Assembly (NCBI RefSeq): GCF_013315695.1
Contig: NZ_CP054353.1
Strand: one strand, 5' to 3'
Length of the DNA: 64,000 nucleotides
Source of the DNA: Escherichia coli
Lineage (GTDB): Bacteria; Pseudomonadota; Gammaproteobacteria; Enterobacterales; Enterobacteriaceae
Shown: piece by piece, positions 7,246 to 11,103 of the stretch
How positions within the stretch are numbered: position 1 is the stretch's first letter
How the letters are laid out: each line of letters begins with the position of its first letter
Made by a program: the position numbers and the translations under genes
The notes under the pieces: generated by a model
Databases searched by the model: none
What the model was told of the DNA's origin: nothing
What the model saw: only the letters and a program-made list of their open reading frames with translations

Positions 7246-7547
7246 TAACACAATCGCTTGCGGACGGGTAAACGTAATGCAGGCTTCCGGGCGCTGTAGA
7301 TCTACTGCGTTTTACCCCACCGCCAGCACACATCGCGCTGGCGGTGAACGACAAAGGAACAAAGACCGCAACACGCTTCCTGTGCCTCAATAAACACCAG
7401 AAATAATGGCTATACTCGTCATACTTCAAGTTGCATGTGCTGCGTCTGCGTTCGCTCACCCCAGTCACTTACTTATGTAAGCTCCTTGGGATTCACTCGC
7501 TTGTCGCCTTCCTGCAACTCGAATTATTTAGAGTATATAAATCGCCG

Positions 7548-8750
7548 TTATTTGATCACATAGGCAAGATATTGTTGTACGATTTCATCGTTTAATTCCT
7601 GACCAAGCCCAGGCAACTCTGGCGCGACATAATAGCCATTCTCGGGTTGATAATCGTAAGTACAAAGTTCCCGAATACATGCTTTCATCGCATTGGTATG
7701 ATGTTCATGAATAATAAAGTTAGGTATTGCAGTTTCCATATGCAGCGCCGCTACTGTTGAAACAGGCCCGCCACAAACATGTACCTGAACGGTTGTGTCA
7801 TATATATTGGCATAATCACAAATTTTCTTTCCCTCTGTAATGCCACCACAAAGACACAAATCAGGTTGAGCTACCGCAATTGATTGTTTTTCCAGTAAAT
7901 CACGATATCCCCAGCGAGTATAAGAACGCTCACCTGTTGCTATCGGAATCGATGTTGAACGGGCAACTTTCTGCATATTATCCGAATTTAATGGATGAAT
8001 TGGCTCCTCATAGAGAAAAATACGATATTTCTCTATTGCTTTGGCAAACTGGATCGCTGAATTTGTTCCTAGAAGAGAATGAATCTCTACAATAATATCA
8101 GCATCGTCGCCCATTGCTTCACGCATAGCGGCAATTCTTGCCTCGCCCATTTTTAATTGTTCGGCCAGTAATAAGCCAGAGTAATTTCTATTTTTGTTCT
8201 GAAAGACACAATCGCCGCCATGCAGATCGATTTCAAGCGGATCAACTTTTATCGCATTATAACCTTCTGCAATAGCGGCACGCGCTGCCTCTGCATACTC
8301 TTCAGGCGTTACTAATATTTGCCTTTTTTCGCCCCAACCAAATTGTAACTGACTGGCGTAAGTTCTCAATTTATCGTTAGTCTTTCCCCCCAGTAGTTGA
8401 TAAACCGGCACGTTTAAATATTTACCTTTAATATCCCATAAGGCAATATCAATAGCGCTCATACCTGCGTAAAAAACATTACCACCGCCCATTCCCCAAA
8501 ATGTTTTCCTGAAGAGGAATTCCCAAATCTTCTCAATGTTCAACGGATCTTCACCAATGATGAGAGGGGCTAAATCTCTGATAATACCAACACCAGATTT
8601 TGCACCTGCACCATAGGCTAATCCTACTTCGCCAACACCACTTATTCCAGCATCGGTATTAACCCGAATAAGTACTGGATTATAAGAGGCCATAGTTTGA
8701 TCTCTTTTTTTGAGTTCGCAGTCAAAAATTTCTACAGATGTAATCTTCAT
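7548..8750 (-). CDS. Enolase-superfamily (mandelate racemase / muconate lactonizing enzyme family) acid-sugar dehydratase-like protein, specificity unknown
   Basis: About 400 aa starting MKITSVEIFDCELK...; motifs ALWDIKGKYLNVPVYQLLGG, DADIIVEIHS, FLYEEP, AQPDLCLCGG typical of MR-subgroup enolases; AT-rich coding sequence. Confidence 0.75.
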   Translation of the reverse strand: MKITSVEIFDCELKKRDQTMASYNPVLIRVNTDAGISGVGEVGLAYGAGAKSGVGIIRDLAPLIIGEDPLNIEKIWEFLFRKTFWGMGGGNVFYAGMSAIDIALWDIKGKYLNVPVYQLLGGKTNDKLRTYASQLQFGWGEKRQILVTPEEYAEAARAAIAEGYNAIKVDPLEIDLHGGDCVFQNKNRNYSGLLLAEQLKMGEARIAAMREAMGDDADIIVEIHSLLGTNSAIQFAKAIEKYRIFLYEEPIHPLNSDNMQKVARSTSIPIATGERSYTRWGYRDLLEKQSIAVAQPDLCLCGGITEGKKICDYANIYDTTVQVHVCGGPVSTVAALHMETAIPNFIIHEHHTNAMKACIRELCTYDYQPENGYYVAPELPGLGQELNDEIVQQYLAYVIK

Positions 8751-8762
8751 AAATAACCTCAT

Positions 8763-10090
8763 TTATTTAGCATGTGAAATAACATTGTCTTTCTGGGCGT
8801 TATCTTTTTTATTATCAATTTTCATTGATAACAAAATAGCTACGGCGATAAAGCAAAGAATCGCCTCAACAATAAATATCCCCGTGGCTCCATAATGTGT
8901 AGAAACATAGCCAAGTGATTTATTGATCAGAAAACCACCCAAACTTGAACAAGAGTTAATAAACGCAATACTGATTGCCAGGCCTGATGGTGAAAGTAAA
9001 GCTGAGGGTAAAGCCCAGTACGGACCGTAATAACTGAGAATGCCTACACCGTATAATGTTAATCCCATCATGCGCAGCGTCATCGAAGGTACAAGTGCGA
9101 TCATTAAAAAACCGCAACCTGCAACCAACATCGGTAGTGCGGCATGCCATTTCCTTTCATTCTTTTTATCGGAATGCCATCCCCATAATGGCATACTGAA
9201 CATCGCGAAAATAAACGGAATACTCATAATCAAACCGACATCGGTATCTGTGAAATCCGATGAAAATCCTTTAACCAACCCCGGTAACCAGTAATTTGCC
9301 GCCAACGCCGCTGCCTGAATAAACATATAAGCAAATGAGAGTTGTAGTAATACTGGATTTTTAATGATTGACAGAAAAGATGCATTTGTATTTTTATTTA
9401 ATGCTGCGGCTTTTTCGTTATCAGAATTAAGTTTATCGACCAATGCGGTGACTTGCGATGGTGTAAGCCAGCGGGCTTTTTCCGGACGATCTGGCAGTAA
9501 ATAAAAGGTCAGCGCCCCCAATAACACCGTAGGAATGCCTTCAATAGCAAAAAGCCAGCGCCATCCTTCATAGTTACCGGTATTCATATGTTCAATAATC
9601 CAACCAGACATTGGTGCCGCCAGCACAGATGCAACTGCGATTGATAACATAAAAAAGCTATTCACTTTTCCACGTTCGCGCGCCGGGAACCAACATGCCA
9701 GGTAGTAAACCATGCCAGGGAAAAACCCCGCTTCAAATATTCCCAAAAAGACCCGAGCGAGCAATATATGCTGGGTGTCTTTGGCAAAGAAAATTAACGT
9801 TGTTACTGTTCCCCAACCAACAATAATGGCGCTAATCCATTTTCTTGCACCTAACTTTTGCAATCCAATACTGCTCGGAGTTTGAAAAATTAAATAGGAC
9901 ACAAAAAATATTGAAGATATATTAGCAAAATCCTCTGGAGTAATACCAAGGGATTCATTCATGCGTAAAGCGGCAAACCCAATATTAACACGATCCATAT
10001 AGTTAAAAAATACAGAATAAATGCTAACGGAATAATCTTCCTTTTCACAATAGAAATGGCATCATACAAATCTTTCTGAGGACTGCTCAT
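8763..10090 (-). pseudogene. TtuB-like MFS (anion:cation symporter family) transporter, reading frame interrupted by a frameshift in a T6 run
   Basis: ATG at 10090..10088 encodes MSSPQKDLYDAISIVKRKIIPLAFILYF, then shifts frame at the plus-strand A6 run 10005..10010. The downstream frame (track ORF 8763..9998) resumes NYMDRVNIGFAALRM..., the family signature. One extra T would join them into a roughly 440-aa transporter. Confidence 0.65.
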
Positions 10091-10180
10091 TTTGTTTCAC
10101 CTTTTGTGCTTCAATGAATAAGAGTACTACCCGAAGTGGATATTACGTAAAAAATAATCCAGTTCAAAAGGTGATGTGTT

Positions 10181-10266
10181 ATATCTGATATATCAGCCTG
10201 ATCATTGATTGAAACACTAACCTACAACAATAAGATACATTATTTTTGTCATATCTGATATATTAG
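10181..10266. promoter_or_regulatory. Two copies of the motif atatctgatatat (10181..10193, 10251..10263), the first containing the perfect 12-bp palindrome ctgatatatcag; candidate operator in the divergent promoter region
   Basis: Exact 13-bp direct repeat spaced 70 bp apart between the divergently oriented MFS and GntR genes. Confidence 0.4.
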
Positions 10267-10327
10267 ACACCTTCATTTATAAAATGATTACATATAATGG
10301 GTCAGCAGCTTAATAAGGGGCAAAGGA

Positions 10328-11026
10328 ATGAGAGATAAAGCGAAACGTGACTTAAGTCACATATCAATTGAGATACCAAAATCCGTAACCCAGGTCATCA
10401 AAGAAAAAATCAGGGATATGATAATTCATGGCGATCTCAGTCTTGGGCAACCGATAAGTGAAAATGAACTTTCGAATATTCTGGCGGTAAGTAAAACACC
10501 TATTCGTGAAGCTTTTATTTTACTTAGTCACAATGAAAATCTGATCAATATCATTCCACGCAGCGGAACATTCGTTTTTTCCGTAACAGATAAAGATATT
10601 AATGACCTCATAAAAATGCGAGTAATTCTGGAGCAGGGTGCAATTAGTGAAACAATGGAAAAGAATGCAAACAATGTCATCATTGAACTAAATAGTATAC
10701 TATCAAAATCAGCAAAAATTAATGCCGAGCGCGATACTCAGGCTTATCTTAAACTGGATCATGATTTTCATTATGTGTTTGTTAAATACGCTGATAATAA
10801 ATACATCTCTCAGGCACACCAATTGATATCCGCACGTTTACTTGCTATCCGTTATCGACTGGATTTCACTACGGAATATATCACCAATTCAAATCGTGGC
10901 CATGCGACTATTTTAGATATGCTAAAAAATAATAACGTTGAAGGTGTTTGTAATTTTATTACTCATCACGTAAGTAGTGGATTTACCGAGCGCGCACGAA
11001 AAATTCTCTCGTTATCTACACAGTAA
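10328..11026 (+). CDS. GntR-family (FadR/FCD-type) transcriptional regulator
   Basis: 232-aa ORF; N-terminal winged-HTH signature ...IKEKIRDMIIHGDLSLGQPISENELSNILAVSKTPIREAFILL; AT-rich; divergent from the MFS/enolase genes. Confidence 0.75.
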   Translation: MRDKAKRDLSHISIEIPKSVTQVIKEKIRDMIIHGDLSLGQPISENELSNILAVSKTPIREAFILLSHNENLINIIPRSGTFVFSVTDKDINDLIKMRVILEQGAISETMEKNANNVIIELNSILSKSAKINAERDTQAYLKLDHDFHYVFVKYADNKYISQAHQLISARLLAIRYRLDFTTEYITNSNRGHATILDMLKNNNVEGVCNFITHHVSSGFTERARKILSLSTQ

Positions 11027-11103
11027 AATGTGAATGAGTTTATAACACTGGCACTTTTCACCTGCTATACTGCCCGACAACCTTTATAGACTCTTATGTA
11101 ACA

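Follow-up and report, generated by a model that had tools for sequence, protein, structure and literature searches.

An STM2273–STM2275-type dehydratase cassette between gyrA and ubiG in Escherichia coli, probably gained by homologous exchange and carrying a frameshifted transporter gene

A 64,000-nucleotide stretch of Escherichia coli contig NZ_CP054353.1 (the window) carries an AT-rich block of three genes between gyrA and ubiG, which code for an enolase-superfamily dehydratase-type enzyme, a transporter of the major facilitator superfamily (MFS) and a divergently transcribed GntR/FCD regulator (Table 1). At the same position Salmonella has the orthologous genes STM2273–STM2275. We consider it probable that the cassette arrived by homologous exchange and that it serves a 2,3-dihydroxy-carboxylate; its transporter is disabled in this strain by the loss of one base. 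The RefSeq annotation, the Salmonella crystal structures and the standard module of transporter, enzyme and repressor were already known. The Salmonella orthology, the replacement-type junctions, the lineage-specific frameshift, the probable mis-annotation of the regulator, the recurrence of the cassette elsewhere and the predicted operator are added here.

Salmonella contigs encoding the exact STM2273-type protein show the order nrdB-nrdA-ubiG, GntR/FCD regulator, MFS transporter, enolase, gyrA-rcsC. The trio, its order and orientation, its location relative to gyrA and ubiG and the spot of an ERIC remnant are all the same as in the window. Amino-acid identity is 92% for the enzyme, 89% for the transporter and 87% for the regulator, the same pair of operator-like palindromes lies 70 bp apart, and the DNA is AT-rich in both hosts; the Salmonella island measures 3968 bp and has 41.9% G+C, with flanks of 55–56%. 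The block, described earlier as an insertion, is not a novel one, since Salmonella has the same trio in the same order and position. Nucleotide identity is, however, only 79.5% over 4277 bp, which excludes Salmonella enterica itself as donor. The two islands also differ in that the E. coli copy is confined to ~2.6% of complete genomes and has a frameshifted transporter in the window strain, and in that a variant 5' end of ubiG belongs to the E. coli carriers. Synonymous divergence (dS) between E. coli and Salmonella is 1.4 for the enzyme, 2.0 for the transporter and 2.2 for the regulator, and 0.65 and 3.0 (saturated) for the flanking gyrA and ubiG. The ratio of nonsynonymous to synonymous divergence (dN/dS) is 0.03, 0.04 and 0.03 for the three genes in the same order, which argues that all of them were under strong purifying selection over most of their separate history. 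In published work STM2273 appears as a dehydratase (PMC5183578), STM2274 as an MFS transporter that is a pseudogene in S. Gallinarum (PMC8538453) and STM2275 as a transcriptional regulator (PMC3293720); the searched literature contained incidental mentions only and no functional study of the three genes.

The distance between gyrA and ubiG is 3906 bp in the window versus 146 bp in a K-12 derivative, which bears out the earlier expectation that these genes are near neighbours in K-12 and are separated here by AT-rich DNA. By BLAST against the K-12 derivative, homology was lost after position 7252 and regained at 11127, with flank identities of 98.6% up to 7252 and 99.1% from 11127 on. This alignment defined the boundaries of the block and demonstrated that the three genes are absent from the K-12-type position. 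The AT-rich block stood as described, while its size had to be corrected from 3.7 kb to 3.9 kb, the right edge falling 23 nt into ubiG. Compared with other 3.9-kb segments of the 64-kb sequence (mean 51.0% G+C, standard deviation 3.5, lowest value 41.7%), the block has a z score of -3.3. The sliding profile likewise separated it from its flanks, as had been predicted: the G+C fraction is ~0.51–0.57 in gyrA, 0.34–0.43 over 7500–11000 and 0.51–0.55 in ubiG. The list of open reading frames (ORFs) holds no integrase, transposase or tRNA gene between gyrA and ubiG (7198–11103), and no significant flanking direct repeat was found, so the block does not qualify as an island formed by site-specific integration or transposition. 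The sole flanking repeat is the 9-bp direct repeat TTATAACAC at 7243–7251 and 11040–11048 (~0.3 expected by chance), of which the first copy is at the left junction; the second lies within the block, 78 bp from its right end. As the origin of the K-12 junction this repeat was rejected; its presence can be put down to chance, and that junction is not what a deletion between the two copies would leave.

Table 1 Features of the block between gyrA and ubiG and of its flanks (positions in the window).
Feature	Positions	Strand	Basis or remark
gyrA	4570..7197	-	ORF list
Replacing block	7253..11126		3874 bp, 39.6% G+C; K-12-type counterpart is 114 bp of intergenic DNA
Putative gyrA promoter spacer and -35 region, diverged	7253..7283	-	Three-way alignment of K-12, window and Salmonella
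ERIC-type intergenic repeat, between dehydratase gene and gyrA	7411..7539	-	Rfam, copy number, consensus match
Enolase-superfamily dehydratase-type gene, STM2273 orthologue	7548..8750	-	400 aa, intact; sequence comparison
MFS anion:cation symporter-type transporter gene, STM2274 orthologue	8763..10090	-	1328 nt; pseudogene here
Frameshift site	10005..10010	-	A6 on + strand (coding T6) versus T7 in intact alleles, codons 27–29
Divergent control region, transporter-dehydratase operon versus regulator gene	10091..10327		237 bp; gene layout
Candidate operator 1	10184..10197		TCTGATATATCAGC, 14-nt palindrome, 1 mismatch to TCTGATATATCAGA
Candidate operator 2	10254..10267		TCTGATATATTAGA, 70 bp from operator 1
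GntR/FCD regulator gene, STM2275 orthologue	10328..11026	+	232 aa; profile and sequence comparison
ubiG promoter-like site	11042..11071	+	ATAACA-18-TATACT with TG
Variant ubiG 5' end, right end of replaced tract	11104..11126	+	ATGAACACTGAAAATCTCCTTAAAAACAATAAC
ubiG	11104..11826	+	ORF list

Both junctions fall in conserved promoter or coding sequence. The left junction is directly upstream of the extended -10 element of gyrA (TGTGTTATAAT, minus strand). In the three-way alignment a GTTTACC -35-like element is common to K-12, the window and Salmonella, and the spacer between it and the -10 element is scrambled. On the right, the putative ubiG promoter of the window (CACCTGCTATACTGCCCGA) resembles the sequence upstream of Salmonella ubiG and not that of K-12, and ubiG codons 3–10 differ from both K-12 (MNAEKSPVNH) and Salmonella (MNTEKPSVAH). 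This variant 5' end looks like the result of two 1-nt indels that compensate each other, together with AT-enriching substitutions; the remainder of ubiG, a respiratory gene of ubiquinone biosynthesis, is ~99% identical to K-12. In the carriers, the ubiG promoter with the first eight codons, and part of the gyrA promoter, would have come with the cassette.

Apart from an ERIC-like match, an Rfam scan of 7100–11200 gave nothing above threshold. The V_AS5 model matched the repeat between the dehydratase gene and gyrA over its full length at 47 bits, which is below the gathering score of 96. The same stretch is multi-copy in every E. coli genome, at a median of 5–6 places per genome, and matches the ERIC consensus at 87%. 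Its ends are kept at the same place in Salmonella, as seen in the three-way alignment, which argues that both islands stem from one arrangement. Carriers of the SMS-3-5 type have two extra inserts of ~75 bp in this element and a block of 4024 bp versus 3874–3875 bp.

At both edges, identity of ~99% gives way abruptly to promoter and coding sequence that is homologous yet heavily diverged, which argues for homologous exchange. We therefore judge it probable that the block was imported in this manner from an unsampled relative carrying the cassette at the same locus. The exchanged tract would run from the gyrA -10 element through ubiG codon 8, with a diverged relative as donor. Recent deletion or transposition would not give such edges. 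The module had been proposed to be horizontally acquired, and its foreign composition and rarity in E. coli agree with that view; the accompanying picture of an insertion into intact K-12-like DNA does not hold, as the intergenic region was replaced.

Retention of a trio ancestral to Escherichia and Salmonella, kept in a few E. coli lineages and deleted in the rest with no horizontal transfer, was weighed as an alternative and appears improbable. It would account for the position, order and orientation shared with Salmonella and for the common ERIC remnant, and it agrees with island dS values (1.4–2.2) within the range of flanking ubiG and with the lack of an integrase, insertion sequence (IS) or significant flanking repeat at the block. 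It also agrees with a database of 5.8 billion proteins in which no donor closer than Salmonella was found: regulator homologues were absent between 88% identity (Salmonella, the closest outside E. coli) and at least 96% (E. coli). Retention predicts, however, that the DNA remaining in K-12 should be nearly identical to the block edges, whereas the gyrA spacer, the ubiG promoter and ubiG codons 1–8 are heavily diverged and the DNA immediately outside the block is ~99% identical to K-12. The block is, moreover, compositionally foreign in both E. coli and Salmonella. The carriers that could be placed (sequence type 62, ST62: CE10 and IAI39) belong to a group that we take to be nested inside the species, and several independent losses with an identical junction would be needed.

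For the distribution of the block, 5426 complete E. coli genomes were searched, and a genome matching at least 80% of the query was counted as a carrier. The block was present in 140 of these genomes (~2.6%), or 139 by a transporter-specific probe, and all 139 matches to that probe were chromosomal. K-12-type adjacency, in which only the gyrA and ubiG ends match across a 541-bp span, was observed in 5285 of 5425 matching genomes. Carriers include CE10 as well as IAI39 and SMS-3-5, the latter two presumably of phylogroup F, and the genome of isolate AF3 (blood culture, UK) is identical to the window. We infer that the block is now limited to a small minority of E. coli lineages, phylogroup-F strains among them. 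CE10 has been assigned to phylogroup F and ST62, and IAI39 is also ST62 (PMC11537424). In strain TH9F11 (NZ_CP054191.1), IS5 interrupts the dehydratase gene, so that the cassette was inactivated there independently.

Over its full length the dehydratase shares 92% identity with PDB entries 4E6M and 2GL5 (E = 1e-259), a Salmonella Typhimurium 'putative dehydratase', and aligns end to end with both crystal-structure sequences. The RefSeq start is at 8750, and the longest ORF begins four codons earlier, at 8762. An identical protein (WP_001571680.1) is encoded in AF3, IAI39, SMS-3-5 and MS 21-1. The Pfam domains MR_MLE_N and MR_MLE_C were detected on the Salmonella orthologue (92% identity) and on each of the 120 homologues listed, which places the enzyme in the enolase superfamily. 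Residues were mapped by aligning the protein with E. coli DgoD, with RhmD of the window and with seven homologues of 60–78% identity, one of them fungal. E222, H224, E248, E274, D297, H324 and E349 align with DgoD D183, H185, E209, E235, D258, H285 and E310, and all seven positions are invariant within the family, including the fungal homologue. The DgoD numbering and roles (three metal ligands, a His acid, a His-Asp base and a transition-state Glu) follow its curated annotation. On this basis E222, E248 and E274, at strands 3, 4 and 5 and invariant in nine family members, are the predicted metal ligands; H224 (strand 3) is the predicted acid and H324/D297 (strands 7/6) the predicted base dyad, with E349 completing the set. 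The predicted active site is thus a complete DgoD-type acid-sugar-dehydratase set with Glu in place of Asp at the first metal ligand. The domains and residues confirm the proposed dehydratase-like enolase as an enolase-superfamily dehydratase-type enzyme, and the suggested active-site and subgroup comparison found the DgoD positions kept and no characterised isofunctional family joined.

More than 4000 proteins reach E <= 1e-100, so the family is large, and its fungal members have 62–66% identity. Names given by the sources of the homologues listed were only generic family or galactonate-dehydratase-type labels. No substrate assignment for STM2273, 2GL5 or 4E6M was found in the searched literature, both structure entries being without a functional name, and the fungal sugar-acid dehydratase literature gave no link to this family. 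In the protein database a single 90%-identity cluster of 7802 members contains both the dehydratase and the MFS transporter, presumably bridged by a fused or mis-joined member; its representative is a transporter, and the E. coli/Salmonella cluster was for this reason absent from the first homologue search.

NCBIfam dehydratase models matched the enzyme below their curated cut-offs: D-galactonate dehydratase NF010624 at 249.3 bits (cut-off 311), bifunctional D-gluconate/D-galactonate dehydratase at 239 (750), D-mannonate dehydratase ManD at 203 (550), archaeal arabinonate dehydratase at 182 (650), L-rhamnonate dehydratase at 126 (393) and L-talarate/galactarate dehydratase at 120 (500). The earlier statement that the substrate cannot be named from the sequence agrees with these scores. 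A second D-galactonate or D-gluconate dehydratase feeding DgoK/DgoA or KdgK/Eda, which would make the cassette redundant, is unlikely. The best curated models are indeed those for galactonate and bifunctional gluconate/galactonate dehydratase, the acid, base and metal residues are the same in kind as in DgoD, and the lack of an aldolase or kinase would fit a product handled by common enzymes. All scores are nevertheless under the curated cut-offs, identity to DgoD is 28.5%, and in the alignment with DgoD the family has insertions of its own behind the second barrel strand. The orthologue has two structural-genomics entries without a functional name, and no assignment was found in the searched literature, which also counts against this reading.

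Tartrate had earlier been left as an option, and a small dihydroxy-dicarboxylate such as meso-tartrate, dehydrated directly to oxaloacetate, was weighed in this form. The three-gene cassette appears self-sufficient in very different hosts, and the residues match the DgoD set for a 2R,3S substrate, a configuration that meso-tartrate would share. Salmonella ST313 respires meso-tartrate although its ttdA is a pseudogene, so that a different enzyme must be at work (PMC4372345). Against this substrate, the known enolase-superfamily D-tartrate dehydratase TarD is absent among the best 60 PDB sequence matches, and the searched literature contained no direct evidence tying STM2273 to a tartrate phenotype. 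Tartrate, fuconate and talarate dehydratases carry K-x-K on strand 2, where the second Lys is the base. The corresponding motif of the present enzyme is K168-V169-D170. Meso-tartrate is given little probability as the substrate. A broader and still speculative proposal, to which we also assign a low probability, is that STM2273-type enzymes represent a new enolase-superfamily specificity that converts a small 2,3-dihydroxy acid into a central 2-oxo acid, for example meso-tartrate into oxaloacetate. If true, it would be clear why a transporter, an enzyme and a repressor are enough for a mobile cassette in hosts from Enterobacterales to Burkholderiales, with enzymes of 62–66% identity in fungi; a classical Salmonella organic-acid phenotype would also gain its gene, and the trait would be one absent from most E. 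coli.

The transporter gene is co-oriented with the dehydratase gene and lies 12 nt upstream of it. All three genes were found where the sequence-only reading had placed them, but the MFS reading frame is not intact: the gene, which measures 1328 nt, is frameshifted, and the longest ORF left in the window is 8763..9998 (minus strand). The transporter is intact, at 442 aa, in IAI39 and SMS-3-5 and is labelled 'frameshifted' by RefSeq in AF3 and MS 21-1. Loss of one T from the T7 tract shifts the frame at codon 29, and the shifted frame stops at codon 44 (9959–9961). A 61-nt probe across the site was matched perfectly in only 5 of 139 carriers; in the other carriers listed the match spans 62 nt. 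Since five independent complete assemblies share T6, the lesion is real. The frameshift is recent and lineage-specific. Decay at the same site in Salmonella was considered and rejected; an STM2274 pseudogene is reported in S. Gallinarum, but Salmonella does not have the T7 tract there. Against the truncated ORF, TIGR00893 scored 258 bits (cut-off 395) over profile positions 8–396 of 399, the best of all models, and HpaX was the other best transporter match, also below its cut-off. MFS_1 was found on the Salmonella orthologue, and the intact E. coli allele has the DRxN motif (DRVN). The MFS transporter named earlier is supported as one of the anion type; for the proposed TtuB-like character, the nearest named models are the D-galactonate-transporter subfamily (TIGR00893) and HpaX, both under their cut-offs.

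The cassette of the window strain is predicted to be inactive for uptake and in early decay, with the dehydratase and regulator genes intact. Continued function, whether by slippage at the T tract, by translation restarting at Met32 (ATG at 9998) or with a different permease feeding the dehydratase, is quite improbable. An ORF does restart at 9998 directly past the shift, a homopolymer lesion can revert, and the other two genes are unbroken. The restart product would, however, lack residues 1–31, about half of the first membrane helix before DRVN, and a T6/T7 tract is short for efficient slippage. T6 is also fixed in five separate assemblies, and the codon-44 stop upstream of a tightly linked gene may invite polarity.

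The divergent GntR regulator was correctly anticipated and belongs to the FCD subfamily: PF00392 and PF07729 were detected both on the representative of the E. coli cluster and on the Salmonella orthologue. In every E. coli record examined (AF3, IAI39, SMS-3-5 and MS 21-1), RefSeq marks 10284..11026 as 'frameshifted'. This label is probably an annotation artefact, because regulator residues 11–218 cover positions 3–209 of 212 in NCBIfam TIGR03338, cassette-linked homologues elsewhere are 220–237 aa long, and the window and IAI39 alleles differ by 13 nt and only 2 aa. In addition, many GenBank records carry the 232-aa protein as an ordinary GntR protein, and its low dN/dS also argues that it is intact. 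We think that the artefact comes from comparison with an over-extended 294-aa Salmonella model, the extra N-terminus of which is read across the operator region.

Two 20-nt direct repeats (10177–10196 and 10247–10266) lie in the divergent control region, each with the palindrome TCTGATATAT(C/T)AG(A/C). In the alignment with Salmonella and a metagenomic contig (L037), these two boxes are the only well-conserved islands of the region. A promoter-like site for the regulator gene (10209–10236, plus strand) shortly precedes candidate operator 2. When TCTGATATATCAGA was scanned with up to 2 mismatches, it was found in the cassette control region of 7 taxa (chance 0.03 per shuffled 3.9-kb island): as a pair spaced by 70 bp in E. 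coli, Salmonella and L037, and singly in Morganella, Enterobacter (perfect match), Caballeronia and Gilliamella. The palindromes are likely to be operators of the GntR/FCD protein, serving autoregulation and repression of the operon. A 10-nt inverted repeat pair at 10097/10165 in the same region was dismissed, as it is not conserved in Salmonella. A scan for promoters and terminators gave counts not above chance (15 found versus 12.8 expected). Two further matches to TCTGATATATCAGA, each with 2 mismatches, lie outside the block at 16041 and 19081, which is slightly surprising (0.12 expected per shuffled 64 kb), with no related gene adjoining as far as looked.

The block is accordingly read as a repressor-controlled uptake-and-dehydration cassette, which we infer to act on a 2,3-dihydroxy-carboxylate (acid-sugar-like) compound. 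The GntR/FCD protein would bind the two 14-nt palindromes and keep both its own gene and the transporter-dehydratase operon repressed; binding of the substrate or a product to the FCD domain would lift the repression. The MFS symporter would then import the anion, and the Mg2+-dependent enzyme would take the C2 proton with His324/Asp297 and expel the C3 hydroxyl with the help of His224. The resulting 2-keto-3-deoxy acid would be metabolised by enzymes encoded elsewhere. Several observations weigh against this account and the origin proposed with it. No NCBIfam equivalog dehydratase model reaches its cut-off, and the first metal ligand is Glu where DgoD has Asp. Repressor action, inducer and operator binding are all deduced from sequence alone, and operator 1 lies upstream of the best transporter-promoter -35 candidate, which is not a classic repressor position. 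As to origin, the closest regulator outside E. coli is that of Salmonella, at 88%, and the ERIC element, the gene order shared with Salmonella and dS values as saturated as that of ubiG would also fit ancient residence.

The cassette was also found in other, distant bacteria, at unrelated chromosomal positions. In Budvicia and Limnobaculum (enzyme identity 77–78%) the order MFS-enzyme-GntR is flanked on one side by a 509-aa ORF and on the other by an ABC-transporter operon, with the 298-aa binding-protein gene next to the cassette; these flanking genes were not tool-annotated. The metagenomic contig L037 (87%) has GntR beside MFS-enzyme. Regulator, enzyme and MFS transporter occur together in Caballeronia (71%) and Pseudomonas (67%), the cassette lies beside a phage-type integrase in Morganella (65%), and it lies among IS fragments in Enterobacter (62%). 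Gilliamella (64%) has GntR and the enzyme with a 424-aa unannotated protein. In Synergistaceae (66%) three upstream ORFs of 360, 174 and 426 aa, read as a TRAP transporter and not tool-annotated, replace the MFS gene, and in Oxalobacter (60%) an ABC system does so. Clustering of neighbours at 31 loci placed the regulator at 12 and the MFS transporter at 9, all among the closer homologues, and no aldolase or kinase family recurred among these. The unit of transporter, enzyme and regulator is thus a mobile, self-contained cassette, and its product must suit ordinary metabolism. The peptide-pattern scan of representative genomes missed both Salmonella, which certainly has the gene, and Escherichia, so its silence on other species is no evidence of absence.

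In Pseudomonas sp. (L041, 3892–6122) a second enolase-superfamily gene and a D-2-hydroxyacid dehydrogenase gene, divergently arranged, adjoin the GntR-enzyme-MFS cassette. Coriobacteriia homologues (52–55% identity) have another conserved neighbourhood (L019–L025, around 1300–7000), read by eye as a PTS-EIIC-like permease, a D-2-hydroxyacid dehydrogenase, a class II aldolase-like protein and Zn- and Fe-type alcohol dehydrogenases, which suggests a separate, fuller pathway on that branch. These neighbours, unrelated to those of the closer homologues, were not used as a clue to the function of the dehydratase.

Elsewhere in the window, two more AT-rich stretches were observed, at ~14750–16500 (G+C 0.32–0.43), spanning the 5' end of yfaL and its upstream region, and at ~55500–57500 (0.35–0.37). 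The yfaL/ehaC autotransporter adhesin gene (11966–15724) is open as a 1252-aa ORF here; an internal stop is annotated in the close relative MS 21-1.

The block is a compact, rarely carried metabolic cassette at a landmark locus, beside the quinolone-resistance gene gyrA. For annotation, the transporter is a true pseudogene in this strain, and the pseudogene label of the regulator is probably spurious. For a large enzyme family that has been crystallised twice, the conserved cassette and its predicted operator offer a handle for finding the substrate. In Enterobacteriaceae, accessory acid-sugar modules are routine, and so is their decay; the findings will not surprise a specialist.

Among known systems, rhmRDTA of E. 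coli lies in the same window (RhmD ~33645–34700, RhmT 32275–33546) and likewise has an enolase-superfamily dehydratase gene adjoining an anion-type MFS gene. Identity is only 24.9% to RhmD and 31.4% to RhmT, and RhmD has Trp for the His acid and no equivalent of Glu349. The rhm operon is one that we take to include an aldolase and an IclR-type regulator. The proposed paralogy to rhmRDTA therefore stands only as a distant one (25% RhmD, 31% RhmT), the regulator being of a different family type, while the absence of an aldolase and a kinase from the block was rightly noted. The roles of the rhm aldolase and transporter have been summarised (PMC12445098). The dgoRKADT operon of E. coli is similar in combining a GntR/FCD-type repressor, an anion:cation-symporter MFS transporter and an enolase-superfamily dehydratase, and DgoD uses the same kinds of residues, namely a His acid, a His-Asp base and three carboxylate ligands. 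It differs in sequence, with identities of only 28.5% (enzyme) and 22.8% (transporter), and the cassette has neither its kinase nor its aldolase. TarD differs from the present enzyme in its K-x-K base motif, replaced here by K168-V-D170, and falls outside the best 60 PDB matches. TarD with TtuB-type transporters nevertheless follows the same logic as the cassette of transporter, enzyme and regulator, in that its product, oxaloacetate, needs no dedicated enzymes.

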